A DNA stretch of 64,000 bases, taken from NCBI GenBank assembly GCA_963662265.2, contig CAXXHA010000028.1, positions 39,137 to 103,136 of the forward strand, in the 5' to 3' direction. The position numbers and the translations under genes are program-made. A model generated the notes under the pieces. It did no database searches, had not been told where the DNA came from, and saw only the letters and a program-made list of their open reading frames with translations. Source of the DNA: Spirochaetia bacterium. GTDB lineage: Bacteria; Spirochaetota; Spirochaetia; CADAEX01. Below, one piece after another: positions 14,257 through 45,822 of the stretch. Each line of letters opens with the position of its first letter. The stretch's first letter is position 1.

Positions 14257-14297
14257 TTAATATAATTATTATACAAACAGATAATAAAATAAAGGAT

Positions 14298-14332
14298 AAA
14301 AAAACCTGAAATGCATAATTTCAGATCAGGTT
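14298..14332 (-). terminator. Terminator ending the minus-strand glycan operon
   Basis: Minus strand aacctgatctgaaattatgcatttcaggttttttt, 45 nt after the stop of 14377..15327. Confidence 0.6.
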
Positions 14333-14376
14333 CTCAGAGATTAAGAACAAACACTTAATGTTTATAATCGAGAATT

Positions 14377-15327: not shown

Positions 15328-15348
15328 CAGTCACTCCTGAACAGTTTT

Positions 15349-17606: not shown

Positions 17607-17626
17607 ACTATATGCTCCTTTATTTA

Positions 17627-18577: not shown

Positions 18578-19970
18578 CCTTCTTTATTTTTTTGAAATTA
18601 TCAATAATTTCATTTTTATATATAAAAACAAATACTACAAACGGAATTATCTGCTGATATTTAAACCCCGAATAATCAAGTATACATGTAGCAATAAAAA
18701 GCAGAACTGAAGAATATATTTTTATCCAGTTGATTCCATATTTATAATATTTATCTGCAATATGAGACCTTAAAATGAAAAATACAATATAAGAAAAACC
18801 TATTGATATAGATGCTCCCCATATACCATATGCTTTAATAAATATATAATTTGATACAATATTCACTATTAATACAATAAGTGTAATAACAACATGCCAG
18901 TAAGTTTTTTTGGCAAAGTTGATACCTACAACAGTAATTTCCGATAAAATATTCATTACAGGAACAAGCAAAAGAAATGGAATCACAAAAACAGCATTGC
19001 TGTACTCTGCAGAGATAATCTTAATTATTATATTTTTAGAAAAGACAACCATATACGCAAAGAAAAACATTATAAAAGTCATCAAATTAGCAACTTTTTT
19101 ATAAAAATATTTATTATCCTCTTTTTCAAATTTTTCAAATGCTACAGGAATCCAGAAAGTTTGAAATGTTGTCTGAATAATTTTTAAAGCACCTACAATT
19201 TTAAATCCGACACTGTAAATACCAAGGTCTTCAAAAGAACAAAGTGATCTAATAAATATTTTATCTGTGCTTTCAAAAACAAAATAAAGTATCTGTGACG
19301 GAATAAAGGGGAGTCCGTATAAGAAAAGGTTTTTAAAACTAATATGTATTTTTCTGAAATTTTTCAGCAAACTGATCCAGTATTTTCTGCTGAAATAAAA
19401 TCCTGTCAGCATTGAACCGAATATACTTAAAATATAAGCAATAACTATAGAATCATAACTTTTTGATACAAACATCGTAAGAAAAATAGCTATAGATGTA
19501 TTCAATAATGCCTGAACAAAATTCAGTATTGAACAATGAATTCCTTTCTGCTGCATTCTTAAAACCAGAAATACATATCTGTAAATTATAGAAAATAAAA
19601 CAGCAACAAAAAGCATTATAAAAACTTTTAAACTGTAATTTTCAAATAAATAAGAAGTAATTTCTTTATAAAAATTTACAGAAATAATAAAAGTCAGAAG
19701 CAACAAAACAACACTGTAATTTATTGCTTTAAAAATTATTGCCTTTTGAGTTAAGTCATCTTTCTCATAAAAGACCCTCATAAATGAAGCATCAAGTCCC
19801 ATTAACATTATAGTAAGAAGTATTTTATGAGCCAGAATAAACATGGATGACTTACCCAGTTCATCAGGCAGAATCAGCCAAGTCAGTACTGGAACAAGAA
19901 AAATATTAATAACTGCTGCGAAATAGGATCCTATAGAAAATGAAAAATATTTTTTTACTAATTTAGACAT
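18564..19970 (-). CDS. wzx: Wzx-type oligosaccharide flippase
   Basis: About 12-14 TM helices; YGLPFIP...TDKIFI...LGIYSVG MOP-family pattern. Confidence 0.85.
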   Translation of the reverse strand: MSKLVKKYFSFSIGSYFAAVINIFLVPVLTWLILPDELGKSSMFILAHKILLTIMLMGLDASFMRVFYEKDDLTQKAIIFKAINYSVVLLLLTFIISVNFYKEITSYLFENYSLKVFIMLFVAVLFSIIYRYVFLVLRMQQKGIHCSILNFVQALLNTSIAIFLTMFVSKSYDSIVIAYILSIFGSMLTGFYFSRKYWISLLKNFRKIHISFKNLFLYGLPFIPSQILYFVFESTDKIFIRSLCSFEDLGIYSVGFKIVGALKIIQTTFQTFWIPVAFEKFEKEDNKYFYKKVANLMTFIMFFFAYMVVFSKNIIIKIISAEYSNAVFVIPFLLLVPVMNILSEITVVGINFAKKTYWHVVITLIVLIVNIVSNYIFIKAYGIWGASISIGFSYIVFFILRSHIADKYYKYGINWIKIYSSVLLFIATCILDYSGFKYQQIIPFVVFVFIYKNEIIDNFKKIKKVVRG

Positions 19971-19971
19971 A

Positions 19972-20994
19972 TTAACTTTTCACATCTGCATTATAATATT
20001 CTTTATACCAGCTTACAAATTCTTTTAAACCATACTCAAGATCAATACAAGGTTCATAATTATAATCTTTTTTAAGTTTATCGATATCTGCATATGTCTC
20101 TGGAACATCGCCTTTCTGAATAGGCATCATCTTTTTAACAGCCTTAATCCCTATAAGTTTTTCAATAATCCTGATAAACTCCATAAGATCAACAGGATTA
20201 CCACGGCCGATATTATAAACAGCAGACAATTCTGAACACTTGGATTTATTTTTAATTATTGAACATATTCCATTTATAATATCATCAATATATGTAAAAT
20301 CTCGTTTCATATTACCATTGTTAAAAACCTTAATCGGAATACCTTCAATTATATTTTTTAGAAATGAATAATATGCCATATCCGGTCTTCCCCAGGGGCC
20401 ATACACAGTAAAGAATCTCAATCCTACAGTCTGAATATTATAAAGTTTTGAATATGTATAAGCCATCAATTCATTGCTTTTTTTTGTTGCAGCATACAAG
20501 CTTTCCGGGTGATCAACTATATCCTCTTCTGAAAAAGGCTGTTTTTCATTACCGCCGTAAACACTTGAACTACTTGCATATACAAGCTTTTTTATATTGT
20601 TTTCTCTACAGACTTCAAGAACATTAAAATAACCGGTAATATTATTTTCAATATATGATCTGGGATTAATCAGAGAATATCTAACACCTGCCTGAGCAGC
20701 AAGATGACATATAAGATCAATATTCTCATCCTGGATTATTTTATTTAATGAATCAAAGTTTTTAATATCAGTCTTGTAAAACATTATATTATTATATTTG
20801 CAGGATAGATTTTTTAAATTATCCCGAATATCTTCTCTGTAGAAGCCAAGATTTTTTAACCGGTCATATTTCAGCTCAATGTCATAGTAATCATTAATAT
20901 TATCAATGCAAATGATCTTGTAATTCTCACTTTTCAATTTTTCAGTCAGCTGATAACCTACAAAGCCAGCAGCTCCTGTAACTAGTATATTCAC
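19972..20994 (-). CDS. UDP-glucuronate 4-epimerase (CapI/LpsL-like)
   Basis: TGAAGFVG, HLAAQAGVRYS, SLYAATKKSNE and GPWGRPDMA. Confidence 0.9.
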   Translation of the reverse strand: MNILVTGAAGFVGYQLTEKLKSENYKIICIDNINDYYDIELKYDRLKNLGFYREDIRDNLKNLSCKYNNIMFYKTDIKNFDSLNKIIQDENIDLICHLAAQAGVRYSLINPRSYIENNITGYFNVLEVCRENNIKKLVYASSSSVYGGNEKQPFSEEDIVDHPESLYAATKKSNELMAYTYSKLYNIQTVGLRFFTVYGPWGRPDMAYYSFLKNIIEGIPIKVFNNGNMKRDFTYIDDIINGICSIIKNKSKCSELSAVYNIGRGNPVDLMEFIRIIEKLIGIKAVKKMMPIQKGDVPETYADIDKLKKDYNYEPCIDLEYGLKEFVSWYKEYYNADVKS

Positions 20995-21004
20995 AATCAG
21001 TTTC

Positions 21005-22141
21005 CTATTTTTTTCTTATTTCTATTTCTTCCAGATATATTTTTTTCAAATAATCAACTACTTTATTTTCATCACAATGTTCTAGACAGTATTTTCTGGC
21101 ATTTTCACTAATTTTTTTTGCCAGAGTATTATCATTAAGAATATCATAAATCCTATCAGCCATCATTTCATGATTATTCAAAGGTACCAAGTAACCATTT
21201 TTACCATTTTCAATTAACTCATTAGAACCTATCACATCAGTGGCAATACAAGGGATGCCAAAATACATTGATTCCATAATGCTTCGCGGTTTACCTTCTT
21301 TTATTGAAGAAAGAACAGAAATATCAGCAGATGCAAGATATCTTTTTATTTCATCTCTATCCAGTTTTCCTGTAAATACTACTTTATCTGTTAATCTGTA
21401 TTTTTTTATTTTATCAGAAATTAATTCCCGATCCCCTTCCCCTATCAGATAAAGCTTATAGTTTTTAAATTGATGTTTTTGCTCGAGAATATTTAAAGCT
21501 TCAATCAGCATTACATGATTTTTTACAGGCTCAATACGAGCAACACAGATTATTTTTTTAATATTTTCATTTGATTTTTTTTTATCAATTTTATTAAACT
21601 CATCAAAATTAATTCCATTACTAATATAAATCAGTTTACATTTCTTTAAATTAAAACTATATGCTAATTCATATTCATATCTATTCTGAAAAAGAAGTAT
21701 ATCTGTAAGCAAACCCAGTATTCTTTCAATGATATAAAATATTTTTCTTTTAATACCATTATATTTAGTAAAATGAAAACCATGCACCTGATGAATAATA
21801 ATCATCTTTTTTTGATGGAAAAAATTGTACATCCAGCAAATAATACGTCCAATAGCTCCGGCTTTTGAGTTGTGAGTATGAATTATATCAGGATTCTCAC
21901 TCTTAATAGTCTTAAATAAAACAATTGATTCCTTAATAATATTTAAGATTCCCAATCCTCTTGTAACATCTATTGTTTTTACTTGAACACCACTATTCCT
22001 GATTACTTCTGCATCCGGACCTTCTGGACAAAGAATAATATTATTTATATCTGATCCTTCATTGATCTTTTTAACACGTGACAAAAGCAACCGCAATGCA
22101 CCCTGTGTAGTTGTCGAAAAATCTATTATTTTTATAGACAT
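21005..22141 (-). CDS. Glycosyltransferase family 4
   Basis: IHTHNSKAGAIGR, VHGFHF, RIEPVKN and EGKPRSIMES. Confidence 0.88.
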   Translation of the reverse strand: MSIKIIDFSTTTQGALRLLLSRVKKINEGSDINNIILCPEGPDAEVIRNSGVQVKTIDVTRGLGILNIIKESIVLFKTIKSENPDIIHTHNSKAGAIGRIICWMYNFFHQKKMIIIHQVHGFHFTKYNGIKRKIFYIIERILGLLTDILLFQNRYEYELAYSFNLKKCKLIYISNGINFDEFNKIDKKKSNENIKKIICVARIEPVKNHVMLIEALNILEQKHQFKNYKLYLIGEGDRELISDKIKKYRLTDKVVFTGKLDRDEIKRYLASADISVLSSIKEGKPRSIMESMYFGIPCIATDVIGSNELIENGKNGYLVPLNNHEMMADRIYDILNDNTLAKKISENARKYCLEHCDENKVVDYLKKIYLEEIEIRKK

Positions 22142-23371
22142 CTATCTAATTCTCTTTTTTTTCCAGATTATTTTGTTATACATTAGCCAATTGTAAGGAA
22201 CAACAAGTAAGCCTATCGCTAAAATAAGAGATACCTGCCGAACAAAAACAGTATCTGATATTAATATTGTTGCCAACCCTATAAACACAAACTGGATGAT
22301 AATTGCGCCAAATGAAGTTAAATTAAATTTAAGAAAACTGGAAAGTACATGTTTTATTCTGTTTAATTTTCTATCTGAAAAAGTCCAGTTATTGTTTAGT
22401 ATGTAATTTGATATTATTGCCATTTCTGTAGCCATTCCAGCGGCCCATGAAGATGGATTTGATAATAAATTAATAGGTTTTCCTGTTAATTTAATAATTA
22501 CATCTGATATATTTACAGCAATACTGTTTCTAAATACTTCCATAAACACAGCATTTACCAAAAATCCGATGAAGCCGACAATTCCAAATTTTACAAACCG
22601 TCTTGTTTCTTTATCGCAGCATCTAAGTCGGATAACTGTCTTTAAAATCTCAACAGGAGTCTGGCCAGTTATTTTAGATTCACCTTCTTCTCTTAATTTA
22701 AAATTCAAAGGGATTTCCTTAACATTTGCACCGCTTTTTACTGTTCGGAAAAGCCATTCCAGCTTATATCCAAATCCTCTTGAATATATCTGTTCATAGT
22801 TTATTTTATTTAATACTGGATATACTCTTGTCGCTTTTAACCCGGTTGTAGGATCTGTAACTTTAAAAAAATCTTTTGTCGGGAAAAAAAGAATCATTCT
22901 TGCAACAAATCCACCAAAAACACTGAAGAATAATCGCTTTAATCCCCAATTTTCAGGGAATCCTCCCCCTTTTACCCTTCTGGAGCCCAATACATAATCA
23001 TATCCGTTATCAATTTCCTCAAGCATTACAGGTATTGTTTCGGGAGGATGCTGAAAATCTCCATCAAATTCAAATACAACATCTGCATCCAATTCATTAA
23101 CTGCATATTTAAAACCTTTTATATATGCTGCGCCAATACCTTCTTTTTCTTTTTCTTCATATAAGAATAAATCTTTATATTTTTCCTTTCTTTTTTTTAC
23201 TTCTTCCGCAGTACCATCAGGAGACTGTCCGTCTACTATCAATATTTTTAATATCCAGTTTTTAACAGGAATTATTTTGCTAAAGAGATAATCAATCATT
23301 TTACCGATCGATTCTTTTTCATTATATGTCGGTATTACTACTACAGCTGTTTTTTCATTTTGTGTTTTCAT
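22142..23371 (-). CDS. Polyprenol-phosphate glycosyltransferase (DPM1-like GT2) fused to a GtrA flippase domain
   Basis: IPTYNE, VDGQSPDGT, FDGDFQHPP, DPTTG; C-terminal RFVKFGIVG...NYILNNNWTF GtrA pattern. Confidence 0.88.
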   Translation of the reverse strand: MKTQNEKTAVVVIPTYNEKESIGKMIDYLFSKIIPVKNWILKILIVDGQSPDGTAEEVKKRKEKYKDLFLYEEKEKEGIGAAYIKGFKYAVNELDADVVFEFDGDFQHPPETIPVMLEEIDNGYDYVLGSRRVKGGGFPENWGLKRLFFSVFGGFVARMILFFPTKDFFKVTDPTTGLKATRVYPVLNKINYEQIYSRGFGYKLEWLFRTVKSGANVKEIPLNFKLREEGESKITGQTPVEILKTVIRLRCCDKETRRFVKFGIVGFIGFLVNAVFMEVFRNSIAVNISDVIIKLTGKPINLLSNPSSWAAGMATEMAIISNYILNNNWTFSDRKLNRIKHVLSSFLKFNLTSFGAIIIQFVFIGLATILISDTVFVRQVSLILAIGLLVVPYNWLMYNKIIWKKKRIR

Positions 23372-24912
23372 TAATTTCCATCTTTTCTTTTATATATTTT
23401 ACAGTTATTTACAACCTTAACAGGTATATAATTCATTTCAATAATCTTATGAAATTTATCTAAATTATTCTGTATATATTCATTGACAATCCTTCCATCT
23501 GAATCAAAATATTCAGTTTTGTCTATAATCAAAACAGGAGGATTATCATTAAATTTTTCAAAAAAATAATTGTAAACAAGATCTGCACTTTCCCTGGTTC
23601 TTAGATAATTATTTCCAAGTAAATGACCGCTGGGATCATATACAGGATTTGCTAATAATCTATCTGAGGCAAAATAATATGCGCCGCCAAAAGGCCATAC
23701 AAATATTTTGTCATCCTTTGATGTATTAGATTTTATATATTCTATAACATTGTTCTTATTATTCATATATTCTGTCCATGTGGGAGGATGATGCATTATA
23801 TTAAAATGTAAATGAAGGAAAGGTGGAAATGATAATAATACAACAATAAAACAATAAATGATTTTTTTGTTTACTGTTTTATTAAATATAATATTTATAT
23901 TGTCAATAAAAATAGAAAGTCCAGCTGCACAAATTGGAATAATTGATAAAAAAGTCAAATAATAATATCGTTCTACATGCTTTCCGCCGGAAAATGCTGA
24001 TAGATAAGTAAATAAGAAAACTAATAATAAAAATAGATTCTCTTTTTCCCTTAATTTTTTTCGTTTGGATATCAGATAATAACATCCAAAAATCAGGATT
24101 GGAACTAATCCAACTAAAAACCGAAGGACTAGAATTCCCCGTGCTATTCTTTTAAAGAGTGAGTAAGCACCAACATAATACCCTGAAAAAGAATACTGCC
24201 ATAGAAGCAAATCATCTAAAGAGTTATTCAATTTATAATATAATAAAACCATTAGCGGAGGTAACAAAAAAAACACAGCTGAAGTAATAATTTTTAATAC
24301 TTTTTTTATTGAAGTGTTGTTTGATAACGCAACTATGACAACATATGGAATAACTAATATTCCGATTCGCATGTTAATTAAAAATGCAAAAGATAAAAAT
24401 AATGAAGATAATAGTAAATTACTCCATGAAAGTTCCATTTTTTTTCTAACAAAAAAATACATACTGATTGAAGTAAAAAAAACTACAAAAACTTCGGTAT
24501 TTGCAGCAAGAACTTCACTAGCCCTTACACAGGTGCTGTATGAAGCAAATAATAAAGCTGCCAAAAACCCTGCTTTTTTGTTAAACAACTCTTTTGTAAT
24601 CAGCCAGAAAAAAACAGAAATTGAGAAAACACAACAAATATTTACAATTTTAAGCACAAAAAAATCATTTTGAAAATTATCACCACCAAGAAAATCAATA
24701 AAAGAATAGATATAAAAAATTCCAGGAGATTTAATATCTGCAAAATCTTGATAAGGAAGACCACCTGCATTAATAATTTTTGCAGCAGTCATATAAAAAA
24801 ATTCGTCTTCTTTCCAAGAGTAATAAGGGAAAATTACAGATCTGAAAAGTATAACTGTAAATATGAGAAAAATTATTTTTGAAAATGTATAGTTATTAAA
24901 GGTTTTTTCCAT
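23371..24912 (-). CDS. GT-C fold (ArnT/PMT-like) glycosyltransferase
   Basis: DEFFY...GGLPYQDFADIKSPG first-loop motif, ANTE motif, about 11 TM helices and a periplasmic C-terminus. Confidence 0.8.
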   Translation of the reverse strand: MEKTFNNYTFSKIIFLIFTVILFRSVIFPYYSWKEDEFFYMTAAKIINAGGLPYQDFADIKSPGIFYIYSFIDFLGGDNFQNDFFVLKIVNICCVFSISVFFWLITKELFNKKAGFLAALLFASYSTCVRASEVLAANTEVFVVFFTSISMYFFVRKKMELSWSNLLLSSLFLSFAFLINMRIGILVIPYVVIVALSNNTSIKKVLKIITSAVFFLLPPLMVLLYYKLNNSLDDLLLWQYSFSGYYVGAYSLFKRIARGILVLRFLVGLVPILIFGCYYLISKRKKLREKENLFLLLVFLFTYLSAFSGGKHVERYYYLTFLSIIPICAAGLSIFIDNINIIFNKTVNKKIIYCFIVVLLSFPPFLHLHFNIMHHPPTWTEYMNNKNNVIEYIKSNTSKDDKIFVWPFGGAYYFASDRLLANPVYDPSGHLLGNNYLRTRESADLVYNYFFEKFNDNPPVLIIDKTEYFDSDGRIVNEYIQNNLDKFHKIIEMNYIPVKVVNNCKIYKRKDGN

Positions 24913-24924
24913 TGCACCAACCTG

Positions 24925-27849
24925 CTATTTTATTTTCTTCCAGTTTTTTGAATCAAAAATATTATTTTTAACACTATATTGGAATTCAATATTAATAGAT
25001 TTATTTCTTAAAACCTGTTCCCATCTCCAGGTATCAGCTTTAGTAAAGGTAAGCTCACGGGAAAAACTATTATCACTTGCTGTAAAATTATTACCAAAGA
25101 TATTTTTATCCAAAACACCAGAAGCAACGAGTGACGGAACATCGGAATTACTCATAAATCTATTATCAATTTTCATTTTGTCAGAATTATTAAAATCTTT
25201 AACCAGCAAAAGAGCATGAGCACGTGTAAATTCTTTTGCACTCAATCCTTCAATATTGAAACTGTCTTTCATCATAGGATTAATAGCAACTTCATTTCCA
25301 TGGTCGGAAACAATAATAATTCTTGTATTATCATATAATTCCTCATTTTTCAGCCAGGTGATCCATTTGGAAACTGATCTCAAAGCTGCCTTTGCACTAT
25401 AATATGCACTCAAACCTTCCTCATTATTTCCAGTTTCCGGATCAGGATATCCATTAGTCAAATTTCCATCTTTATCTATTGAATAAGGTACATGTGTTGT
25501 AAAATTATGAAAAAACTTAAATGTATTTCCATCTGATTCAGAATTTGACAGCTCTCCAAGCAGGTCAAGGAAAGCATATGATCTGAGAGCATGATTATAG
25601 GCCCTGTTTTTAATTGTATCACTGTTGATAAAAATCCACCTGCCGCTGTTATAGATAAAAGGTTTTATTATAAAAGGTACAGATTTAAATATTGATACAG
25701 CTAGTAAAATATTACTGGAATAATTTTCAATATCGTCAGATGAAACATTAATTGAATTTTTATGAACCCAATAATTAACATAATCTCTGTCAAAAACTGC
25801 TAAGATATCCTGCTTTTTAAGACTGGACAAACTTCCCAATGGAGTATGATATGAATCAGGATTTGTACGTGCTATTTTGAAATCATTATCCTTCAGTTTA
25901 TTATGTAAATCATCATAGGATTTTGAAATAACATTTACTATATAATCATCTTTCCGTTTATTTATTTCATCAGGCAAATATTTAAATCCGGCATTTATTG
26001 AAGGAAGACTTGTTGTTGTATGATATCCAACACTAAGAGTATTAGGGTACCAGTAGAAACCTGTATAGTTACTCATTATTTCAGGCTCTTCATCAAGAAC
26101 CTGCTGAATATATCCACCTGTAAACATGTCCAGCAACAATACAACAATGTTCTTTCCATTTCTGGAAAATCCAAGTAATTCATCATTATAATCAGGAACA
26201 AAATCATTGTTGTTACTAAAATCACTGACAAAAGCTTCATTATTAATTTTTCTTATTCCGTAAATACTGACTGATGTCTGAACAAAACCTATAAGACACA
26301 TTAATATGAAAAAACCAAACAGCTGTTTCCGCCATGATTTTACAAGAAACACTGAACCAATAAAAATCAAAATCAGTACACAGAATTCAAGAAGTATTCC
26401 AGAAAGTTCGGTATGAAGATTATTTGCTTTTGATAAAGTAAATTGATCAAGAGAACCAAAATCTCCGATAAATACTGTATTATATACAAGAATCAAAATA
26501 GCAAGAAAAACCATAAAGTAATTTACAGAACTTACTTTCTTTTTAGGAATTATAAATATCCCGGCTAATATAATTGAATAGATCAAACCTGCTATAGCTA
26601 AAAGAACAAAAACAATACTGAATATAGATTTATTAAAATCACCAGGTGAAGTTGCAAAAAGCCTGATTGGTGTATAAACAATTACCATCAATATAGAATA
26701 TAAAGCAGATAATAAGTAAATTCTTTTATTATATTTTATAATACCAGTTTCTTTTTGATCTGTAATTTTATTTATATATATTGCAGGGAACATTATACCG
26801 ATCAGCATAAGATGCGATGCAATATATAATTTTTTAAAAATATCCAGTGTTGATATTATATTAATTTTAAAGCAATTATCAAAAGAAAGAAAAAGAACAG
26901 CAAATACAGTTAATACAATAATCGACTTATAGATTTTATAAAGGATATTTCTACTCTTATCCTTGAAAATAACTATAAATGAATATATTTCAACAATAAA
27001 CATGAGAAAATAAACAAGATTCAGAGCATTAAATCTTGTTTCGGAATATTTATATCCAAAATGAAATATCAGTAAATAAAAAATCAACGAAATAATTACA
27101 AGATAAATATAAAATATTTTTAAATTGTTGTAATTAATTTCTTTTTTAATAAAACCAAGAAAATCCGGACTCTCTTCATTTTCAATAAAATAAAGAACAA
27201 TATTCTTAAAAAGAGAAAAAATATTATTAAATGTCCAGTATAATAAAAGAGAAGATGGTGAGTTATATAAAAGTACAAGAAATAAGCCAGCCATAATCCA
27301 TAACTGTATCTTATCTTTTTTTTCTAAACCTTTTGTATAAACATATGCAGATAAAATATTAACAACAGTCATTATAAAAGGCATAATATTTATATTCATA
27401 CCGGCTAAATTTATTAATTGATCAGCCGTTCCAAGATCATCAAGAAAAAGAAAATTTATACCTAATAGGTCAGGCAGATGAGACAGCAGGTGATAAGCAG
27501 ACATAAAAAAAGGAACCTGAATAAGAAATCCAAAACTAACCCGGAAAGCCATCAGCGGATTATAATTAAATCGCCGATATACGGCCATTGTATAATAATA
27601 TTTTAATTCTCCGGAAAAAGCTTCATTTATTTTATCAAGCTCCGGTTTCATTTTTTTTGTTATACATCTTTCAGCTTTCTGCCATTTTTCTGCCAGCAGA
27701 TATAAAGGAATAAGAACAATATTTACACAAATACTTAATAAAATTATTGAAAATCCGTAGTTATCAGTTAATGAGAAAGAAAATCTCAGTATAATATTCA
27801 TTAAACATTCAAGAGGAAAAATAAATATATTATATAAAAAATGCATCAT
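24925..27849 (-). CDS. YidC/Oxa1-domain protein fused to a multi-TM linker and an alkaline-phosphatase-superfamily (LtaS/EptA-like) domain
   Basis: N-terminal YGFSIILLS..LIPL, MKPELDKI, LIQVPFF and PSSLLLYWTFNNIFS. C-terminal NIVVLLLD, HTTTSLPS, THVPY and IIIVSDHG. Confidence 0.88.
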   Translation of the reverse strand: MMHFLYNIFIFPLECLMNIILRFSFSLTDNYGFSIILLSICVNIVLIPLYLLAEKWQKAERCITKKMKPELDKINEAFSGELKYYYTMAVYRRFNYNPLMAFRVSFGFLIQVPFFMSAYHLLSHLPDLLGINFLFLDDLGTADQLINLAGMNINIMPFIMTVVNILSAYVYTKGLEKKDKIQLWIMAGLFLVLLYNSPSSLLLYWTFNNIFSLFKNIVLYFIENEESPDFLGFIKKEINYNNLKIFYIYLVIISLIFYLLIFHFGYKYSETRFNALNLVYFLMFIVEIYSFIVIFKDKSRNILYKIYKSIIVLTVFAVLFLSFDNCFKINIISTLDIFKKLYIASHLMLIGIMFPAIYINKITDQKETGIIKYNKRIYLLSALYSILMVIVYTPIRLFATSPGDFNKSIFSIVFVLLAIAGLIYSIILAGIFIIPKKKVSSVNYFMVFLAILILVYNTVFIGDFGSLDQFTLSKANNLHTELSGILLEFCVLILIFIGSVFLVKSWRKQLFGFFILMCLIGFVQTSVSIYGIRKINNEAFVSDFSNNNDFVPDYNDELLGFSRNGKNIVVLLLDMFTGGYIQQVLDEEPEIMSNYTGFYWYPNTLSVGYHTTTSLPSINAGFKYLPDEINKRKDDYIVNVISKSYDDLHNKLKDNDFKIARTNPDSYHTPLGSLSSLKKQDILAVFDRDYVNYWVHKNSINVSSDDIENYSSNILLAVSIFKSVPFIIKPFIYNSGRWIFINSDTIKNRAYNHALRSYAFLDLLGELSNSESDGNTFKFFHNFTTHVPYSIDKDGNLTNGYPDPETGNNEEGLSAYYSAKAALRSVSKWITWLKNEELYDNTRIIIVSDHGNEVAINPMMKDSFNIEGLSAKEFTRAHALLLVKDFNNSDKMKIDNRFMSNSDVPSLVASGVLDKNIFGNNFTASDNSFSRELTFTKADTWRWEQVLRNKSINIEFQYSVKNNIFDSKNWKKIK

Positions 27850-29126
27850 TATACTGTACTCAAACCTTCAGAAATCTTTATCAACTGTTCTGCAGCAGTA
27901 TCTCCTGCAGATCCAAAATTATAGAAAGATTTTTCAATTAATAGATTAATATCTTTTAAATCAAAATCCGTTATCAATTCCTCTACAAAATCAGGTAATT
28001 TATCCAACTCACTTTCATCAACCAGTTTTCCCAGTTTTTCCCTGATATTCAATTCCCAAATATCATTGAGATCCATATCATCTGCTTCAAGTCCAATTGT
28101 TTCAACTGGAGCATCTATAGTAATAACAGGTTTTTTATACATAAAAGAGTATTCAAAAATTATACCTGATAAATCAGATATAAGAATGTCAGATTTTGTC
28201 ATAGCCGTTTCACCTGAAGGATTTTCATCCCATATAATCTCACTGTATTCTGCTGTTTCCTTTTTCAGTTTTTTAATTAAATCTTTTTGAGAAACATACA
28301 TTTGAGGATGCGGCCTGAGAATAATTTTGTAATTTCGGTTAAGCAATGGTTTGATAATATTCATTTCAAAACGAGTTAAAAGGCTGTTTTTATTCCAGGT
28401 TGGAGCTAATAGAATTGTTTTTATTTCATTACCTTTCTTTTCAGATTCAAGTTTCTTTTTAAGCATTACATCAAAAGGTGTATAACCAGTTTCATATAGT
28501 TCTTTTTTGGCTGTTCCCCTCATTTCTTCAAAACGGATGAGATTTTCTTTCTGATGAGGTCCGGAACATAAAATTGAATCAAAACAGTCAAACGCATAAC
28601 GCCCATATATACCTATATCAGTCGGAGCATGAAATATATGTGTATAATGCTTTACAGACTTAGACCGCCTGATTGTTAAAATATCGAGCTGCGGTGTTGT
28701 CATTACAACAAGATTAGCTTTCATATTATTTAAAAAAACAGAAGACTTAACTGCATTTCCAATATACAAAGAATCTACAATTGTTGAATTATATTTCAAT
28801 CCTGGATCATCTTTATCTGATGAAATATAAATACATTTCCGGCTAAGATTTTCAAGCGCTTTTACTACAGAAGAAAAAACAATCCAGTATTGTTTTCCCT
28901 CAGAAAATAATACTATTTCATATTTCCGTAAATCATTATCTGTATTAACAGCTTTTCCAGTAAAAAAATATTTAAACCTGTAATATACTCCCTTAACAGC
29001 ATATAATGCAGCTGCCACAATACCGACAAATGCATATAAAAGCATACTGCCGGTGCCTGGATCTATATATGAGTAGGCAGGAAACGTAACCAGCAATAAA
29101 AATATAAATATATAATACAGTCTCAT
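27849..29126 (-). CDS. CDP-glycerol/alditol phosphotransferase family (TagB/TagF-like) with an N-terminal membrane hairpin
   Basis: HIFHA, TGYTPFD, ILLAPTW, ILRPHP and SDILISDLSGIIFEY; N-terminal signal plus YIDPGTGS plus TM helix. Confidence 0.85.
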   Translation of the reverse strand: MRLYYIFIFLLLVTFPAYSYIDPGTGSMLLYAFVGIVAAALYAVKGVYYRFKYFFTGKAVNTDNDLRKYEIVLFSEGKQYWIVFSSVVKALENLSRKCIYISSDKDDPGLKYNSTIVDSLYIGNAVKSSVFLNNMKANLVVMTTPQLDILTIRRSKSVKHYTHIFHAPTDIGIYGRYAFDCFDSILCSGPHQKENLIRFEEMRGTAKKELYETGYTPFDVMLKKKLESEKKGNEIKTILLAPTWNKNSLLTRFEMNIIKPLLNRNYKIILRPHPQMYVSQKDLIKKLKKETAEYSEIIWDENPSGETAMTKSDILISDLSGIIFEYSFMYKKPVITIDAPVETIGLEADDMDLNDIWELNIREKLGKLVDESELDKLPDFVEELITDFDLKDINLLIEKSFYNFGSAGDTAAEQLIKISEGLSTV

Positions 29127-29575
29127 TCAGATCGCTCTTCTACAATATCTCCATTTACCAGCTTGATAACATGTGTTGTTGAAATATCTTTAGTACGGGG
29201 AACAATTACAACCTTCCCCAGTTCATATAAATGACCAAACCAGTATTTAACATACTCCTCATCATCGGAAGCAACAAACATGGCATCTACTTTATATTTC
29301 TCCATAAATTCATCGACTTTTGCCGAATCAGTGGCATGAGGCCCCCATGATCTGTCGATAATAACAGCATCATCTGTATATCTACATGCTTTTATTATTT
29401 CAAGTCTCTCATTTTCATTAAAAATGGGTTTTCTTTTTTCCTGCATTGTAAGTTCATCAGAATCTATAGTAACGATAACTTCTTCAAACATCTCTTTAGC
29501 TCTTTTTAACAGCCTCACATGCCCCACATGGAAAAGATCAAATACCCCGTTAACAGCACATCTTTTATAATTCAT
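29123..29575 (-). CDS. TagD-like cytidylyltransferase (copy 2)
   Basis: GVFDLFHVGH and PRTKDISTT motifs. Confidence 0.88.
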   Translation of the reverse strand: MNYKRCAVNGVFDLFHVGHVRLLKRAKEMFEEVIVTIDSDELTMQEKRKPIFNENERLEIIKACRYTDDAVIIDRSWGPHATDSAKVDEFMEKYKVDAMFVASDDEEYVKYWFGHLYELGKVVIVPRTKDISTTHVIKLVNGDIVEERSE

Positions 29576-29652
29576 ACTTAATCCTTTAATTCCAATACAT
29601 CACTCATATAAACTCTCCATCAGCAAGGAATACATGTAAGCTAAGAGCAAAT

Positions 29653-30138
29653 CTAACCGAAATCAGAAAGTTCCTTATCATTTTTCTTTACTCTATCCCG
29701 TGTTATTTCGCCATTCACAATTTTAATTACATGTGTTGTTGATATATCCTGAGTTCTGGGAACAACAACAGTTCTATTGGTTTTATGAAGATGAGAGAAC
29801 CATTTTAATACATCTTCTTCTGTATCTGCTGCTATAAAAACTGCATCAAGATTATATTGATCCATGAAATTGTCGACCTTGTCATCTTCAAAAGCAAAAG
29901 GACCATATGAATCATCAACTAATACAGCATCATCAACATAACTACATGATTTAACAATATTCAGCCTGTCCATTTCACTGAAAACAGGCTGTCTTTTTAC
30001 TCGGGATGCAAATTCATCAGAATCAACAGCAGCAATTACTTCATCAAATATTTCTTTAGCTCTTTTTAAGAGATTTACATGACCAATGTGAAAAAGATCA
30101 AAAACTCCATTGACAACACACCTGCTGTATTTCATCAA
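29653..30138 (-). CDS. TagD-like cytidylyltransferase (copy 1)
   Basis: GVFDLFHIGH and PRTQDISTT motifs. Confidence 0.88.
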   Translation of the reverse strand: MMKYSRCVVNGVFDLFHIGHVNLLKRAKEIFDEVIAAVDSDEFASRVKRQPVFSEMDRLNIVKSCSYVDDAVLVDDSYGPFAFEDDKVDNFMDQYNLDAVFIAADTEEDVLKWFSHLHKTNRTVVVPRTQDISTTHVIKIVNGEITRDRVKKNDKELSDFG

Positions 30139-30228
30139 AATTTGTCCTGCTTAAAATAATATTTATATAATTCTATAAAAATATTAACACTTTTTATACA
30201 CTCTAATAGATAAATATTATTGATCTGA

Positions 30229-31530
30229 TTAAACACCGACACCAGTATATGAAAATCCTGACTTTTCAACATTTTCAGAATTATAAACATTTCGAAGATC
30301 GACAAATACATTGCCGTTCATTACATCGTTCAGCTTTTTAAAATCTAGCGCCCTGTACTGGTTCCATTCTGTCATTATTACAACAGCATCTGCACCCTTA
30401 CATGTTTCATAGGGGTCGTTATAATACTCAACTTTTTCAAGATGCGGTTTTGCCTCTTCCATACCTTCAGGATCAGTAAGTCTTAATACAGCACCATCAT
30501 TAACAAGAGACGGAACAATTGTAAGCGCTGGAGCTTCTCTCATATCATCAGTCTCCGGCTTGAAAGTAAGACCCAAGACTGCAATAGTTTTTCCTGATAC
30601 TTCTCCGCCGAGAGCCTTTCTGATTTTTTTAACCATCAGAGATTTCTGTGAATTATTCACATTGAGAACAGATTCGAGAATTCTTGAACTCATTCCGTTG
30701 TCATGAAAAATCTTTACAAGAGCAGTAACATCCTTTGGAAAGCATGATCCGCCGTATCCGGGACCTGCATGGAGGAATTTTGAACCGATCCTCTTATCAA
30801 GGCCCATTCCTTTCGAAACATCCTTGACATCTGCACCTACTTTTTCACAAAGGTTTGCAATTTCATTGATAAAAGATATTTTTGCGGCAAGAAAAGAATT
30901 GCTTGCATATTTTATAAGCTCAGCTGTTTCTAGGCCTGTTATAACCATCGGTGTTTCAAGGAGATAAAGAGGTCTGTAAAGCTCTCTTAAAAGCTCTTTA
31001 GCCCTGTCGCTTTCAGCTCCAAGTACAACCCTGTCAGGTCTCATAAAATCGCCGATTGCAGATCCTTCCCTGAGAAATTCCGGGTTTGATGCTACATCGA
31101 AATCAGCTTCAGGATTTGTATCCCTGATAATTCTTTCAACATTTCTTGCAGTGCCTACAGGAACTGTACTCTTATCAACAATTACAGTATAGCCTTTAAG
31201 ATGGGATGCAATCTCCTCAGCTGCGCTGTAAACATAACTGAGATCAGCATAGCCGTCTCCTCTTCTTGAAGGAGTTCCGACAGCAATAAATACAACATCA
31301 GCCTCTTCAACAGGTGGCTCATATGAGAGAGAAAAGCTGATTCTTCCAGCTCTTACATTTTTTTTAACCAGATCTTCAAGACCTGGTTCATAAATAGGCA
31401 TAATTCCGTTTTTAAGAGCATTGATTCTTTCTTCACTCTTATCAACACATACGACATCCCAGCCGAACTCTGCAAAACATGTCCCAGATACAAGCCCTAC
31501 ATAGCCTGTTCCTATCATAACTATTTTCAT
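30229..31530 (-). CDS. ugd: UDP-glucose 6-dehydrogenase
   Basis: GTGYVG, KSTVPVGT, NPEFLREG, GYGGSCFPKD and FKPETDDMREAP. Confidence 0.95.
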   Translation of the reverse strand: MKIVMIGTGYVGLVSGTCFAEFGWDVVCVDKSEERINALKNGIMPIYEPGLEDLVKKNVRAGRISFSLSYEPPVEEADVVFIAVGTPSRRGDGYADLSYVYSAAEEIASHLKGYTVIVDKSTVPVGTARNVERIIRDTNPEADFDVASNPEFLREGSAIGDFMRPDRVVLGAESDRAKELLRELYRPLYLLETPMVITGLETAELIKYASNSFLAAKISFINEIANLCEKVGADVKDVSKGMGLDKRIGSKFLHAGPGYGGSCFPKDVTALVKIFHDNGMSSRILESVLNVNNSQKSLMVKKIRKALGGEVSGKTIAVLGLTFKPETDDMREAPALTIVPSLVNDGAVLRLTDPEGMEEAKPHLEKVEYYNDPYETCKGADAVVIMTEWNQYRALDFKKLNDVMNGNVFVDLRNVYNSENVEKSGFSYTGVGV

Positions 31531-31533
31531 TGT

Positions 31534-32883
31534 TTATTCCTTTAATTCATAAATATCATTAAAAACTGTGTTACCAAGTTTATATTTTTCAGTATCAATC
31601 ATATAAATCTGCTCCAGATTTTTTTTAAATCCTTTATTTACAAAATTATTTATAAAATTCAGATTACTATTATCTAAATCGGTTTTTATAAACCAGAATT
31701 TCCCATAATTATTATTGCTCACAATTAAAAACATAAGTTTTAGGCTGTTTTTGATTATATGATCTGGGATATCATAATAATTGTTATCAAATAGTTTATA
31801 TCCGGTAATTACAGGAGTTCCTGTAAAAGCAATACTTATATTACGGGATTTTAAATTATTAATCACTCCCTTGTATTTCAATGGAAGAAGAAGCAGTGTT
31901 TTAGAATCCGAGTATTTCTCTATATACTGCATTATTTCATTATTATATTGTTCTTCCGGATTGATACTTCCGGAATATAAAAAGCGAGTATCAACTGAAA
32001 GAAAATCAGTATCCGGAATAGTAAAAACAGACTTAAAATCCATAAAAGGACTTTTTACCTGACAGTTTTTAAATACTTCAGAACCATAAAATTTTATCTG
32101 TTCTTCACCAAAATATGAATCAACATCATGCGGAAGGTTATTATCAATAAAGCTGTTTAAAAATAAATCACTTATAGAAAAAGGTCTTAATTCGGCATTT
32201 TTATCAAGACAGTATACATTTCTTCCAATCTTTTCAGATTTATTTAATATGATCATCTTTTCTTCAAAATCAGGATTCCCTATAATAATAATATTTTCAG
32301 TCTCTCTTTCAGAATTTGAAACAGGGATACCTAAAAAAGAGGAATCAAGATCTGTAACACTTTTAGTATAAATGAAAGATATTTTCACATCATTATTATT
32401 GATAATATTCTGCAGTGTTTTCTTCTCATGAATACCAAAGTTTGAAGAAAATACTCCCATTTCCGGAATTATTTTATTATCAGAAAACTTTATATTTCTG
32501 TAGAAAAAATATCTTATAAACATCATTCCTGCAGAAGTCACCATATATTCTGTGAAAATAATTGCAAGCGGCATTCTTATTTCCTGAATTGGAGAAAATA
32601 ATCTGAGAAATAAAAACAAAAGTGAGGAATATATATTAATTTTAAATATTTTTATTATCATTTCTCTCTGAAATGTGTTGTAATAATAAGAATATCCTTC
32701 AAGAAGCATAGTTACAAGAATCCTCGTTAAAATTACATAAGGCATAATGAAAAGAAGCCCTTCTATTGTATAGAAAAACTCTTTAAACCTGGATCTAATC
32801 ATCCAAGATGCAACGAGAGATATTACAATGATTAAAATATCAAGAAGAATAAGAGAAAAACTGTATTTATTATTTTTTTTCAT
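31534..32883 (-). CDS. Membrane protein resembling a degenerate CapD/WbpM/PglF
   Basis: Four N-terminal TM helices with LLD..., MPLAIIFTEY...IRYFFYR, then RPFSISDLF; no intact Rossmann glycine motif or YxxxK. Confidence 0.5.
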   Translation of the reverse strand: MKKNNKYSFSLILLDILIIVISLVASWMIRSRFKEFFYTIEGLLFIMPYVILTRILVTMLLEGYSYYYNTFQREMIIKIFKINIYSSLLFLFLRLFSPIQEIRMPLAIIFTEYMVTSAGMMFIRYFFYRNIKFSDNKIIPEMGVFSSNFGIHEKKTLQNIINNNDVKISFIYTKSVTDLDSSFLGIPVSNSERETENIIIIGNPDFEEKMIILNKSEKIGRNVYCLDKNAELRPFSISDLFLNSFIDNNLPHDVDSYFGEEQIKFYGSEVFKNCQVKSPFMDFKSVFTIPDTDFLSVDTRFLYSGSINPEEQYNNEIMQYIEKYSDSKTLLLLPLKYKGVINNLKSRNISIAFTGTPVITGYKLFDNNYYDIPDHIIKNSLKLMFLIVSNNNYGKFWFIKTDLDNSNLNFINNFVNKGFKKNLEQIYMIDTEKYKLGNTVFNDIYELKE

Positions 32884-34069
32884 TTTCAGAAAACACTCCG
32901 TCCAATATTACTTTAAACTGATTCAGTGAATTATTAATAGAATAATATTTCTCAGAAAAATGTTTAATTCTTCTACAAATATTTCTGTAATTTTCAAAAT
33001 CAGAATTCAGCTTTTTTATATATGATATAACATTATCTATATCTGTACTGTTTTCCAGAACAATCCCAATTTCATTAGTAATCAGAATTTCCCCAATTTC
33101 AGAATTTTTAGGACCAAAAAAGATCATCGGTCTACCGGATGCCAGATAACTATAGAATTTTGATGGGACAATATCTCCAACAGAATCCTTTTTCTGAGCT
33201 AACATTAGAACAGACGCATTACTCAAATTTTTACTGACTTCTTCAATAGGAGCATATGGTTCGAATTTAAAATAAATTTCTTTGTTGTCAAATAATTGAC
33301 AAGTTTTATTATAATTTTTCCCTCCGCCTACAAAATGGAAATAAATATTTTCTTCTTTAAAATATGGAACAGATATTAAATCCTCCATAATACTCAAATC
33401 ATGGGGTATTCCTATATTACCAGAATAAAGAATTTCAAACACATCTTTTTGTTGAGGATCATTATATTCAATCATATTAGGCCAATTATGAATAATGGAA
33501 ATTCTTTTGCCGGGAATATTATAGTTTTCAATTTTCCTTTTCATATAACTGCCAATTGTAATAATTTCGGCAGATTTTTTTATTGCAAGTTTATTAAATA
33601 CTTTTAAGCGCCTCACTATCCAGGGATTTTTAATAATTTTAAGGTCATATAATATTTCAGGATAAAGATCCTGGACATAAAAAATCATCTTAGTATTTCT
33701 GAAAAGGTTTGCAAAACCAACAGAAAACTGTATAAGAGGAGGCAGAGTCAAAGTAACAACACAATCATACTTTTCTTTAAAAATAAGAAATATAAAAACT
33801 TTAATATAAAATAACAGATAGTTTATAAGTTTTCCCATCATATTATTTTTCTTAAAATTTGTAGCTTTTAACTTCTGAATTATTACATTATCAGGAATAT
33901 TAACTTCCCAGTCTGTTTCATCTTTATAATATTCACTGCTGGTTGACAAGACTGTTATCTCGTATTTCTTATCAGATGACAGTTTGAGAATAAATTCTGT
34001 AAATAATTGTGATATTGCAGAAATATCAGGATAAAAATAATACGGAATAAAAAGAATTCTTTTCATCAT
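32870..34069 (-). CDS. Glycosyltransferase family 4 (WbuB/WcaI-like)
   Basis: YFYPD, TLPP, VQDLYPE, IHNW, YSGNIG and VPSKFYSYLASGRP. Confidence 0.88.
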   Translation of the reverse strand: MMKRILFIPYYFYPDISAISQLFTEFILKLSSDKKYEITVLSTSSEYYKDETDWEVNIPDNVIIQKLKATNFKKNNMMGKLINYLLFYIKVFIFLIFKEKYDCVVTLTLPPLIQFSVGFANLFRNTKMIFYVQDLYPEILYDLKIIKNPWIVRRLKVFNKLAIKKSAEIITIGSYMKRKIENYNIPGKRISIIHNWPNMIEYNDPQQKDVFEILYSGNIGIPHDLSIMEDLISVPYFKEENIYFHFVGGGKNYNKTCQLFDNKEIYFKFEPYAPIEEVSKNLSNASVLMLAQKKDSVGDIVPSKFYSYLASGRPMIFFGPKNSEIGEILITNEIGIVLENSTDIDNVISYIKKLNSDFENYRNICRRIKHFSEKYYSINNSLNQFKVILDGVFSENEKK

Positions 34070-35187
34070 TTTTCATCCTGCTTATGTTCTGTATATAAAT
34101 AAACAGAGTAAAATAAAAAAATAAGAATTAAATGTATATTTGCTCTGTATCTTATAGCTGCTCCCGAATTCATAATTCCCTGAATATATTGTGCAAATGA
34201 TATCCACCAGAATGTTGTCACAAGCATAAAAAACCACTGATAATAATTTTTAAAATTTATAAAGACTGGAACAATTTTATCCTTAATTAAAAATAATAAT
34301 ACCCCATAATAAAGAAAACTCTCAATAAATGAAAATAAATGAAGTATAGAATATTTTATTTCGGAAAATGACGGTCCCCACATAGAAAGCGGCATTAAAT
34401 ATGGAAGTTTTTTAAAAAAGTCATATTGTTCAAGAAACATCATCTCTCTTGTAGATCTAGCATTTTTACTATACCAGTCATCTAATTGACGAGAATAACT
34501 ATCAATTTTGTCTTTAAAAATATATATTAATATTAACGATCCAATAATTACAAAAATCCATAAAATAATTTCAGTCTTCCATTTTATACTAACGAATTTT
34601 TTATATATGGCAAATAAAACTAATAGATATACTGCCGGAATATACTGTGTTTTAATTACTGTTATCAAATATAATGCAATTATTAAACTAAAAGATATTT
34701 TGATTTTTTGCCCAATAATTACTTTAATAATTTCACTTAAAAATATTCCGATCGAAAAAACAATTAATGCTTCTTTTCCTGCAACAGATGACCAGATATT
34801 AAAAGATGGAAAATAACATAACAGTATAATAATCTTATAATTTTTAGTATTTTCAGGTATGGATTTAAGAAATTTTCGAATACCATAATATGCAATAAGA
34901 GAACAAAAAATATGAATCAAGATATCATATCGTAATAGAGAACTTATGGATCCTATGAGAAATCTGGGAAGAAGAGTTCTTTCAATAAATATTCCAAATT
35001 TGTAAGTATAAAAAAGTTCAACAGGGTTTGAACTTATATACAGTCCGGTATCTCCGAGAAAAGTCATTTTTTTTATTACAAATTCAGCAACAAATGCAAG
35101 AATAAGCCTGTAAAATAATAAATAATCAATTAATTTATTATTAAAAAATTTTTCTTTTATTTTTATATCATTCATATTAACACTCAA
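34066..35187 (-). CDS. Putative Wzy-like polysaccharide polymerase
   Basis: About 10 TM helices; GDTGLY, PSFNIWSSVAGKEA and NSGAAIRYR motifs seen in polymerase-like glycan-locus proteins. Confidence 0.6.
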   Translation of the reverse strand: MSVNMNDIKIKEKFFNNKLIDYLLFYRLILAFVAEFVIKKMTFLGDTGLYISSNPVELFYTYKFGIFIERTLLPRFLIGSISSLLRYDILIHIFCSLIAYYGIRKFLKSIPENTKNYKIIILLCYFPSFNIWSSVAGKEALIVFSIGIFLSEIIKVIIGQKIKISFSLIIALYLITVIKTQYIPAVYLLVLFAIYKKFVSIKWKTEIILWIFVIIGSLILIYIFKDKIDSYSRQLDDWYSKNARSTREMMFLEQYDFFKKLPYLMPLSMWGPSFSEIKYSILHLFSFIESFLYYGVLLFLIKDKIVPVFINFKNYYQWFFMLVTTFWWISFAQYIQGIMNSGAAIRYRANIHLILIFLFYSVYLYTEHKQDEK

Positions 35188-35293
35188 ACAAATATAGTTT
35201 ACCCAATATAATAAATATCTGCTTTTATATTACCTTGTCTAATTTTTTTTTTGAATCTATAATTCTATTTATCTTTATTAGAGAGAGGAATAA

Positions 35294-35995: not shown

Positions 35996-36059
35996 AATTA
36001 TAGGATTATAAAGAATACAATTTTCTGTCTATTTTTTTCTGAACTGTAATATACAGCTA

Positions 36060-37229: not shown

Positions 37230-37249
37230 AAAATATCCTTAAATAATTA

Positions 37250-38020: not shown

Positions 38021-38025
38021 TCAAT

Positions 38026-39327: not shown

Positions 39328-39333
39328 ATTAGA

Positions 39334-45820: not shown

Positions 45821-45822
45821 CT

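Follow-up and report, generated by a model that had tools for sequence, protein, structure and literature searches.

Does a YidC domain that lacks the arginine of its hydrophilic groove lose the chemistry of an insertase, or has it been turned to another use? The question is raised by a gene in a stretch of 64,000 nucleotides (hereafter 'the window') from a bacterium of the Spirochaetia (assembly GCA_963662265.2, contig CAXXHA010000028.1, positions 39,137 to 103,136). A single open reading frame (ORF) of 974 amino acids (24925..27849, minus strand) encodes a YidC-like core, a polytopic membrane block and an LtaS/EptA-like ectodomain. An initial annotation read the first core helix of the YidC-like domain as carrying asparagine in place of arginine (R366 of Escherichia coli YidC), and proposed a neofunctionalised YidC acting as a translocator of a lipid intermediate, as an in-cis chaperone for its own transmembrane (TM) domain or as an insertase for a single client. 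We find that the charge is missing from this helix throughout a large family, that a lysine on another helix is a candidate replacement, and that the family belongs to a widespread module of three kinds of gene.

A family of YidC-like domains without the canonical groove charge

The helix quoted in the initial annotation, residues 31–49 (YGFSIILLSICVNIVLIPL), is identical to the translation of 24925..27849. In an ungapped phmmer alignment, Asn43 (codon 27721..27723, minus strand) stands opposite R366 of E. coli YidC (3wvf, in which the chain index equals the residue number). It also stands, again without gaps, opposite the arginine of 'tilirlallpl' in Bacillus halodurans YidC2 (3wo6), which we take to be R72 on the assumption of a numbering offset of +24. 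The consensus asparagine of a profile built from 75 homologues likewise falls on R366. The annotation was also right that the large periplasmic P1 domain is absent: about 30 residues precede the first core helix, and they hold no TM1, P1 or signal peptide (the core helices are themselves numbered TM1 to TM5 below).

Among 121 fused proteins, the query included, position 43 is Asn in 53, Thr in 34, Ser in 31, Gln in two and Gly in one, and Lys or Arg in none (0/121). The short or standalone forms, 104 in number, have Asn in 89, Ser in 12, and Thr, Lys and a gap in one each, giving Lys or Arg in 1/104. When clusters at 50% identity were represented by 136 sequences, the counts were Asn 73, Ser 35, Thr 20, Cys four, Gln two and Gly one, with Lys and Arg absent among the residues listed and one further residue unlisted. 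At 77 genome loci the site is Thr in 32, Asn in 21, Ser in 16 and Gln in one, seven being unreadable. Housekeeping YidCs from six genomes that carry the fusion, that of the window among them, have Lys or Arg at this site in every case (6/6); the window genome's second, ordinary YidC (578 residues, 221 bits) has Lys. The alignment of fused with housekeeping proteins thus separates the two at the groove column, 0/121 against 6/6, and at the level of aligned residues it is confirmed that loss of the TM1 groove charge is family-wide and beyond chance. Asparagine itself had been expected to be conserved among fused homologues, and here the annotation held in part: Asn, Ser and Thr exchange freely at position 43, and what is kept is a small polar residue.

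A lysine on TM5 as a candidate relocated charge

A passage of PMC4252904 gives the hydrophilic groove residues of E. coli YidC as T362, R366, T373, Q429, T474, S520, N521 and Q527. By sequence alignment, the equivalents of these eight in the fusion are S39, N43, Y50, Q111, V163, N208, N209 and K215, while W205 falls on E. coli Y517. Six of the eight positions in that list are polar in the fusion and a seventh, Lys215, is charged; V163, the equivalent of T474, adjoins the invariant N164. Judged by alignment rather than by coordinates, the domain therefore has the hydrophilic groove of the YidC/Oxa1/Alb3 proteins as that passage lists it.

Lys215 (codon 27205..27207, minus strand) lies on TM5 and aligns without gaps to Q527. 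Position 215 is Lys in 184 and Arg in 12 of 198 family sequences, and Lys in 130 and Arg in six of the 136 representatives; the equivalent residue in housekeeping YidCs is Gln (6/6). A second family-specific positive charge, Arg103 (codon 27541..27543, minus strand), is found where TM2 begins on the cytoplasmic side, next to an insertion of three residues. It is Arg in 189 and Lys in nine of the 198 sequences (Arg in 120 and Lys in 16 of the 136), where housekeeping YidCs have Gly or Ser. The combination of no Lys or Arg at 43 with Lys or Arg at both 103 and 215 occurs in 419 of 432 distinct family sequences, and P0226, alone in having Lys at 43, carries Glu at 215. The initial annotation had allowed that its case would fail if the arginine were present at a shifted position, and in part this is what we see: the charge is a lysine, family-wide, at a position that aligns with a residue lining the E. 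coli groove. The aligned sequences make it a candidate explanation that the groove has been re-charged rather than left uncharged, a lysine lower down replacing the arginine of TM1.

How strict is the arginine rule?

Passages of Chen et al. (2022; PMC8920935) describe the groove arginine as 'strictly conserved' in 'all homologs', with a positive charge in all homologues. The same passages report that E. coli YidC carrying R366A or R366N complements fully if residue 517 is Tyr, Trp, Phe, Asn or Ser, and that R73Q abolishes function in Streptococcus mutans YidC2 when the native W234 is kept. In the fusion family the residue equivalent to 517 is an invariant tryptophan, Trp205.

The groove site also varies among ordinary YidCs. 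In 20 sampled housekeeping YidCs of the class Clostridia it is Lys in 13, Arg in four and Tyr in three. Tyrosine at the TM1 groove site (FTIVIYLLMMPLT) is found in the housekeeping YidCs of L129, L130 and L131, plus that of L100, a Lachnospiraceae genome in which the gene lies at 1216..2547 (minus strand). These proteins have an arginine on TM5 (GLYWIAGxVxRSIQQ), three residues ahead of the position of K215, and each of them (146–152 bits to PF02096) is its genome's sole scored PF02096 match besides the fusion type. They are not fused to an enzyme and are presumably general insertases. Given that the charge has moved from TM1 to TM5 in apparent general insertases, and that R366N can be functional, a missing arginine alone is no proof of new function; the step from 'no Arg' to 'no insertase chemistry' is a weak one.

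A conserved clade that coexists with housekeeping YidC

A search with the 974-residue fusion returned 363 homologues at E ≤ 1e-3, and the family profile matched 14191 cluster representatives at E ≤ 1e-3, of which 1625 were at E ≤ 1e-30. Among 150 listed profile matches the matched stretch starts within the first 15 residues, and most of the proteins are 800–1100 residues long. In a tree from a quick maximum-likelihood search, 46 fused and 20 standalone forms split from 11 housekeeping YidCs on a branch of length 2.05 (support by the Shimodaira–Hasegawa-like approximate likelihood ratio test, 100), the fused forms being interleaved with the standalone ones, which are 215–245 residues long. All 11 genomes examined (11/11) have one high-scoring housekeeping YidC (132–230 bits) together with one to five copies of the family type (80–98 bits). 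The number of family copies reaches five in one Treponema genome (G001) and four in another genome (G005).

The YidC-like domain is the best-conserved part of the protein, with 45–53% identity in BLASTP over about 22% of the query compared with 25–34% over the full length. Across 42 sequences 26 columns are invariant, and mean column identity is 53%. The in-membrane polar residues S39, Q111, T161, N164, N208 and N209 are 96–100% conserved; polar residues within helices that are specific to the family are S39, T161, N164, T206, N208 and S212. The loss of the canonical arginine might suggest a degenerate relic that serves as a mere membrane anchor. We find this scarcely credible, and reject it on the pattern of conservation: a relic would hardly be the most conserved part of its protein, with so many invariant columns and so complete a retention of polar residues inside the membrane.

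At least 594 relatives were found among species genomes, mostly of Treponema and other spirochaetes. Other carriers, by their labels, are Verrucomicrobia, Desulfovibrionaceae, Odoribacter, Photobacterium, Neptunomonas, Sutterella, Bulleidia, Lachnospiraceae and an actinobacterium. Of the best 77 loci, 67 encode a protein of at least 755 residues, six are cut by contig ends and two hold standalone genes. Tandem copies of the YidC-like::LtaS-like gene occur in L008 (four), L039 (three) and L009, L076 and L049 (two each), and such arrays often alternate with TagF-like genes. In one cluster representative, P0366 (618 residues), a YidC-like domain without the Arg is joined to VanW and G5 domains in place of a sulfatase-like part; it could be a different fusion or a mis-assembly.

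Databases name the family proteins 'YidC/Oxa1 family membrane protein insertase', and a protein atlas returned generic YidC clusters only (scores 0.91). A full-text literature search, outside which most subscription journals lie, found no description of a YidC-like::sulfatase/LtaS fusion or of its TagF-like partner. What a passage of Rice et al. (2019; PMC6697681) mentions near phosphonate genes is confined to LicD-like phosphotransferases and glycosyltransferases.

Architecture of the fusion protein

The ORF, its Pfam matches and an AlphaFold2 (AF2) model divide the fusion into three parts; the model, built with 75 homologues, has a predicted local distance difference test (pLDDT) score of 82.4 and a predicted template modelling score of 0.71. 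The YidC-like domain occupies residues 1–223 (27181..27849, minus strand). Pfam 60KD_IMP (PF02096) matches residues 31–219 with 79.2 bits against a cut-off of 35, and with 84.4 bits in the genome search. Its predicted helices are an N-terminal helix (2–28), TM1 continuous with the first cytoplasmic helix, CH1 (31–77), the second cytoplasmic helix, CH2 (80–93), TM2 (98–124), TM3 (156–171), TM4 (177–193) and TM5 (199–223), and over residues 1–220 the block-mean pLDDT is 83–96. Both AF2 and Foldseek thus place here the five core helices that characterize the YidC fold, the first two of them joined by a cytoplasmic hairpin. Compared with B. halodurans YidC, the front of the fusion gave a TM-score of 0.73 and a root-mean-square deviation of 3.0 (3wo7_A), and a TM-score of 0.76 (3wo6). 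The hairpin, residues 53–95 (27565..27693, minus strand), starts with the motif AEKWQxxER, in which A53, E54, W56, Q57, E60 and R61 are conserved specifically in this family; conservation and the complex model described below make it the predicted docking surface for the TagF-like protein.

The polytopic block, residues 243–540 (26230..27123, minus strand), has nine predicted helices according to AF2 secondary structure and pLDDT, the first four of low confidence (residues 243–363) and the last five confident (375–540). Foldseek alignments to full-length MCR-1, EptA and PbgA have more columns than those chains have residues. The ectodomain, residues 555–974 (24928..26187, minus strand), resembles LtaS and EptA of the alkaline-phosphatase superfamily on the evidence of Foldseek, phmmer and invariant columns. 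Foldseek matched this part to MCR-1 (9nww_B, 2.1e-7), LtaP (4uop_A, 2.4e-7), PbgA (6xlp_A, 4.3e-7) and EptA (5fgn, 7.6e-7). An ectodomain of this fold with a membrane block before it is the architecture of LtaS and EptA. Pfam Sulfatase (PF00884) matches residues 756–854 weakly (19.2 bits, below the cut-off of 25); homologues lie above the cut-off, among them P0246 with 44.1 bits and P0249 with 38.5 bits. The family profile matched sulfatases and LtaS in the PDB at E values from 4e-7 to 2e-4, and phmmer aligned the 'SDHG' segment to Listeria LtaS (E 0.0043), with D849–H850 on the Listeria 'DH'. D574, T611, D849 and H850 are invariant in 75 sequences and are candidates for metal ligands and nucleophile; T611 is presumably the nucleophile, by analogy with LtaS and EptA rather than by a residue-level alignment.

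The TagF-like partner and the gene neighbourhood

In the order of transcription (minus strand), the genes around the fusion encode a uridine diphosphate (UDP)-glucose dehydrogenase, two TagD-like cytidylyltransferases, a TagF-like transferase, the fusion, a PMT_2-type GT-C glycosyltransferase and a GT2-GtrA fusion. The TagF-like transferase (27849..29126, minus strand; 425 residues) matches PF04464 over residues 199–336 with 49.9 bits against a cut-off of 22.1. Its stop codon and the start codon of the fusion share one base, and the two genes are translationally coupled. Of the TagD-like genes (29123..29575 and 29653..30138, minus strand; PF01467, 76.8 and 75.2 bits), the one at 29123..29575 overlaps the TagF-like gene by 4 bases. 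The two enzymes are the likely source of cytidine diphosphate (CDP)-glycerol. The GT-C glycosyltransferase (23371..24912) and the GT2-GtrA fusion (22142..23371), both assigned by Pfam, lie downstream in the same run of minus-strand genes.

Neighbouring genes were annotated at 19 of 22 chosen loci, three having exceeded a size limit, the TagF-like genes of L012, L033, L036 and L076 being recovered by tblastn and alignment. A TagF-like gene is present in 19/19, in several phyla. It lies no more than two genes from a YidC-like gene in 18/19, a count that includes L076, where it adjoins the second YidC-like copy of the locus; the exception is L036, where it is 8.4 kb off. The head-group genes vary from locus to locus. 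TagD is found in the window; elsewhere there are phosphoenolpyruvate mutase with phosphonopyruvate decarboxylase (Ppd), nucleotidyltransferase-aminotransferase fusions, or choline kinase with a nucleotidyltransferase. Two loci are split: in L003 a YidC-like gene is followed by a separate TM+sulfatase gene, and in L032 the order is TM+sulfatase, TagF-like, YidC-like.

The N-termini of 17 TagF-like partners share a motif, Y-[IL]-D-P-G-T-G-S, followed by one hydrophobic helix and then by basic (Lys/Arg-rich) residues; Y20, D22, P23, G24, G26, S27 and L29 are nearly invariant. In the window the motif reads YIDPGTGS (29046..29069, minus strand). About half of the partners, that of the window included, have before it what appears by eye to be a signal-peptide-like hydrophobic stretch ending in small residues. 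As read from these sequences, the motif would be outside the cell under both N-terminal arrangements.

We modelled the YidC-like domain together with the TagF-like protein. The interface score (interaction prediction score from aligned errors, ipSAE) was 0.73, 0.72 and 0.73, compared with 0.05 for the best control; in a benchmark, about 116 of 157 solved complexes and about 2 of 215 mismatched pairs reached the same mark. At least 37% of contacts agree between runs, and the pLDDT of the partner is at least 79. The interface is confident between residues 73–93 of the hairpin and residues 148–151, 176–180, 203, 205 and 344–349 of the partner, including its invariant R203. The model thus predicts that the TagF-like enzyme docks on the domain's hairpin. 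We know of no solved complex of this kind, and the score is therefore unlikely to reflect the model's memory.

A second fusion type, YidC-TagF

Among 150 genomes of the class Clostridia, two encode a protein in which a YidC part is joined to the TagF-like enzyme itself (PF02096 with PF04464), L113 (704 residues) and L114 (633 residues). An LtaS-like gene lies beside the first, and phosphonate genes lie beside the second. L113 also has an ORF of 69 residues (L113:4612-4821) that combines 'YVDP' and a single helix with a basic stretch and an acidic tail. At the equivalent of position 215, L114 has Gln; the alignment does not cover this position in L113, which was inspected by eye. In a quick tree the YidC parts of both group with Gram-positive housekeeping YidCs, and this separate placement indicates two or more recruitments of the YidC fold to the module, one of which has the N43/K215 pattern. 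PF04464 was absent from the 24 family representatives of odd length that were scanned, and five genomes carrying the family, Gram-positive or other, yielded no YidC-TagF fusion.

What does the YidC-like domain do?

The YidC-like domain is probably a membrane hub that links a cytoplasmic CDP-X transferase to an outward-facing phosphotransferase. The reading that we favour, to which we give somewhat less than an even chance, goes further. The domain would be a neofunctionalised YidC paralogue whose groove passes a lipid-linked head group, at the centre of a three-part machine that puts phospho-head-groups on envelope glycans. To the observed fold, residue pattern, gene association, fusion and coexistence with a normal YidC, it adds three things that we infer: a lipid-linked intermediate, a path for it through the groove, and the acceptor at the end. 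CDP-glycerol would be made by the two TagD-like enzymes. The TagF-like enzyme, held on the CH1–CH2 hairpin, would load glycerol-phosphate onto an acceptor bound to the membrane where the groove opens. The lipid-linked head group would then cross the bilayer through the polar, uncharged interior of the groove (S39, N43, Y50, Q111, N164, N208 and N209), R103 and K215 presumably lying lower, towards the cytoplasmic end. Finally, the fused LtaS/EptA-like ectodomain would take the head group and hand it to a surface glycan. Neofunctionalisation, as the initial annotation had it, finds backing in the separate clade, the coexisting YidC, the fusion to an enzyme and the predicted docking; it finds none in the missing arginine, from which it had been argued. 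A passage of PMC11047089 reports that purified E. coli YidC scrambles glycerophospholipids in vitro. The minimal loci hold no other obvious flippase. A broader form of the idea, that a modular make-flip-transfer machine has as its transbilayer conduit a YidC fold that was formerly a protein insertase, is possible, and we put it forward with some doubt; the head group loaded into such a conduit may be glycerol-phosphate, phosphocholine or a phosphonate.

Several points weigh against passage of a lipid-linked head group through the groove. We know of no lipid-linked intermediate of this kind. Enzymes of the TagF type normally use lipid-linked glycans exported by Wzx or ABC (ATP-binding cassette) transporters, and the window holds two Wzx-type genes. 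LtaS, EptA and enzymes of that kind draw on bulk phospholipids and work without a dedicated flippase. To judge from the model, translocation could instead fall to the nine-helix block. For R103 and K215, depth and orientation are taken from alignment alone, and the complex with the TagF-like enzyme is a prediction from custom unpaired alignments. At the 11 loci compared, the choice of Asn, Ser or Thr at position 43 was unlinked to the head-group genes. The YidC parts of L113 and L114 keep Lys at the canonical groove site, which means that the charge pattern is not tied to membership of the module.

The same components could instead be combined without any movement of lipid, the YidC-like domain being a scaffold and a dedicated holdase: its groove would insert and hold the N-out anchor of the TagF-like partner, its hairpin would tether the enzyme, and the LtaS/EptA-like part would act alone, on ordinary lipids or on an exported glycan. 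The N-terminus of the partner, a short tail with an invariant Asp, one hydrophobic helix and a Lys/Arg-rich sequence, suits this proposal, for YidC inserts substrates of this type, such as Pf3 coat and MifM, without help. The separate 69-residue ORF beside a YidC-TagF fusion, with its Y-x-D-P and helix, fits as well, as does the docking that the model predicts on the hairpin. The chemistry of the groove is also compatible with insertion, to judge from the reported complementation by R366N/Y517W, from the placing of K215 on Q527 and from the housekeeping YidCs charged on TM5. Nevertheless, the hairpin and the catalytic domain account for all confident contacts of the complex model; the anchor has no confident position there and counts neither way. 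In addition, each of the genomes examined has a housekeeping YidC that could insert an anchor of this kind, and a holdase fails to explain why a CDP-X transferase and an outward phosphotransferase are locked to one hub across phyla. We regard this explanation, the main rival, as rather unlikely. Quite improbable, in our view, is the proposal that the domain is an in-cis chaperone for its own nine-helix block and ectodomain, or simply a second general insertase, even though it is always N-terminal, hence made first, is found fused (at least 755 residues) in 67/77 genome loci and keeps a hydrophilic groove. There are standalone forms, which mix with the fused ones in the tree, and the YidC-like and TM+sulfatase genes are separate in L003 and L032, in the latter with the TagF-like gene between them. 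LtaS, EptA and MCR-1 are generally known to need no such domain. The conserved hairpin motif and the predicted docking of the TagF-like protein would be left unexplained, and the presence of up to four tandem copies per locus and five per genome fits the diversification of an enzyme rather than a general insertase. Of the three roles proposed in the initial annotation, the in-cis chaperone is accordingly the least likely.

Comparison with known systems

The domain resembles YidC/Oxa1/Alb3 proteins (3WO6/3WO7; E. coli 3WVF/6AL2) in its five-helix core, its coiled-coil hairpin and its kink prolines, P48 and P113. It differs from them in that the Lys or Arg of TM1 is absent, and in the family-specific K215, R103 and hairpin motif; it has no signal peptide, TM1 ahead of the core, P1 or free C-terminal tail, is fused to an enzyme and is always an extra copy. 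The Tyr-type YidCs of Clostridia (L100, L129, L130 and L131) share the loss of charge on TM1 and the positive charge on TM5, but are not fused to an enzyme.

With LtaS/LtaP, EptA/MCR-1 and PbgA the fusion shares the fold of the ectodomain and the membrane block that precedes it, and putatively the Asp, Thr and Asp-His residues of the metal site and nucleophile; those proteins have neither a YidC-like domain nor an obligatory TagF-like partner, and draw on bulk phospholipids. GacH and OpgB are glycerol-phosphate transferases of the LtaS/EptA kind. The YidC-TagF fusions have the same three parts (YidC fold, TagF-like and LtaS-like), the head-group genes and the Y-x-D-P and helix element, but there YidC is joined to the TagF-like rather than to the LtaS-like enzyme, and the canonical Lys is kept. 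The GtrA/GtrB/GtrC and CsbB/GtcA/YfhO systems handle sugars on undecaprenyl phosphate, with GtrA-type flippases and GT-C transferases. The proposed machine would have a logic in common with them, a lipid-linked donor made inside, flipped and used outside; they contain neither a YidC fold nor an LtaS-like enzyme.

The surrounding glycan cluster

The window holds about 50 kb of near-uninterrupted surface-glycan genes (10995..63046, minus strand), with a G+C content of 23–36% compared with 38–41% at the left end of the window. Within it are the two Wzx-type flippases (18564..19970 and 57776..59194), more than 15 glycosyltransferases, two UDP-sugar dehydrogenases, a methyltransferase, and NeuB with a gene like those for cytidine monophosphate-sugar synthetases (60485..63046). 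Two genes of the CotH kinase family stand at its left edge (7742..8914 and 10995..12113, minus strand; Pfam E 5e-29 and 1e-28). The cluster also contains a DUF1420 protein of 604 residues (42918..44732, minus strand; 191.6 bits), of a family that Pfam describes from Leptospira. At 35294..40695, among the glycan genes, a plus-strand ABC ATPase gene faces minus-strand genes for a LolA-like protein and two FtsX/MacB-type permeases.

Implications

New here are the K215/R103 pattern with its lysine on a groove position, the housekeeping YidCs with Tyr on TM1 and Arg on TM5, the Lys kept in YidC-TagF fusions and the predicted docking on the hairpin. The statement, in passages of PMC8920935, that the groove arginine is 'strictly conserved' is qualified by a large natural clade that lacks it and has a lysine at another groove-aligned position, and likewise by the Clostridia YidCs charged on TM5. 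Both are natural experiments on the purpose of the groove charge.

The clade also marks a widespread gene module, TagF-like with YidC-like and LtaS/EptA-like, in gut, rumen, oral and marine bacteria. The module probably serves to add glycerol-phosphate, phosphocholine or phosphonate groups to the cell surface, where groups of this kind influence immune recognition as well as sensitivity to phages or antimicrobial peptides. It makes testable the idea that the groove of an Oxa1-family protein moves lipids physiologically; should the fold indeed serve as a transbilayer conduit, this would be the first natural case of lipid scrambling as a selected function in the Oxa1 superfamily.

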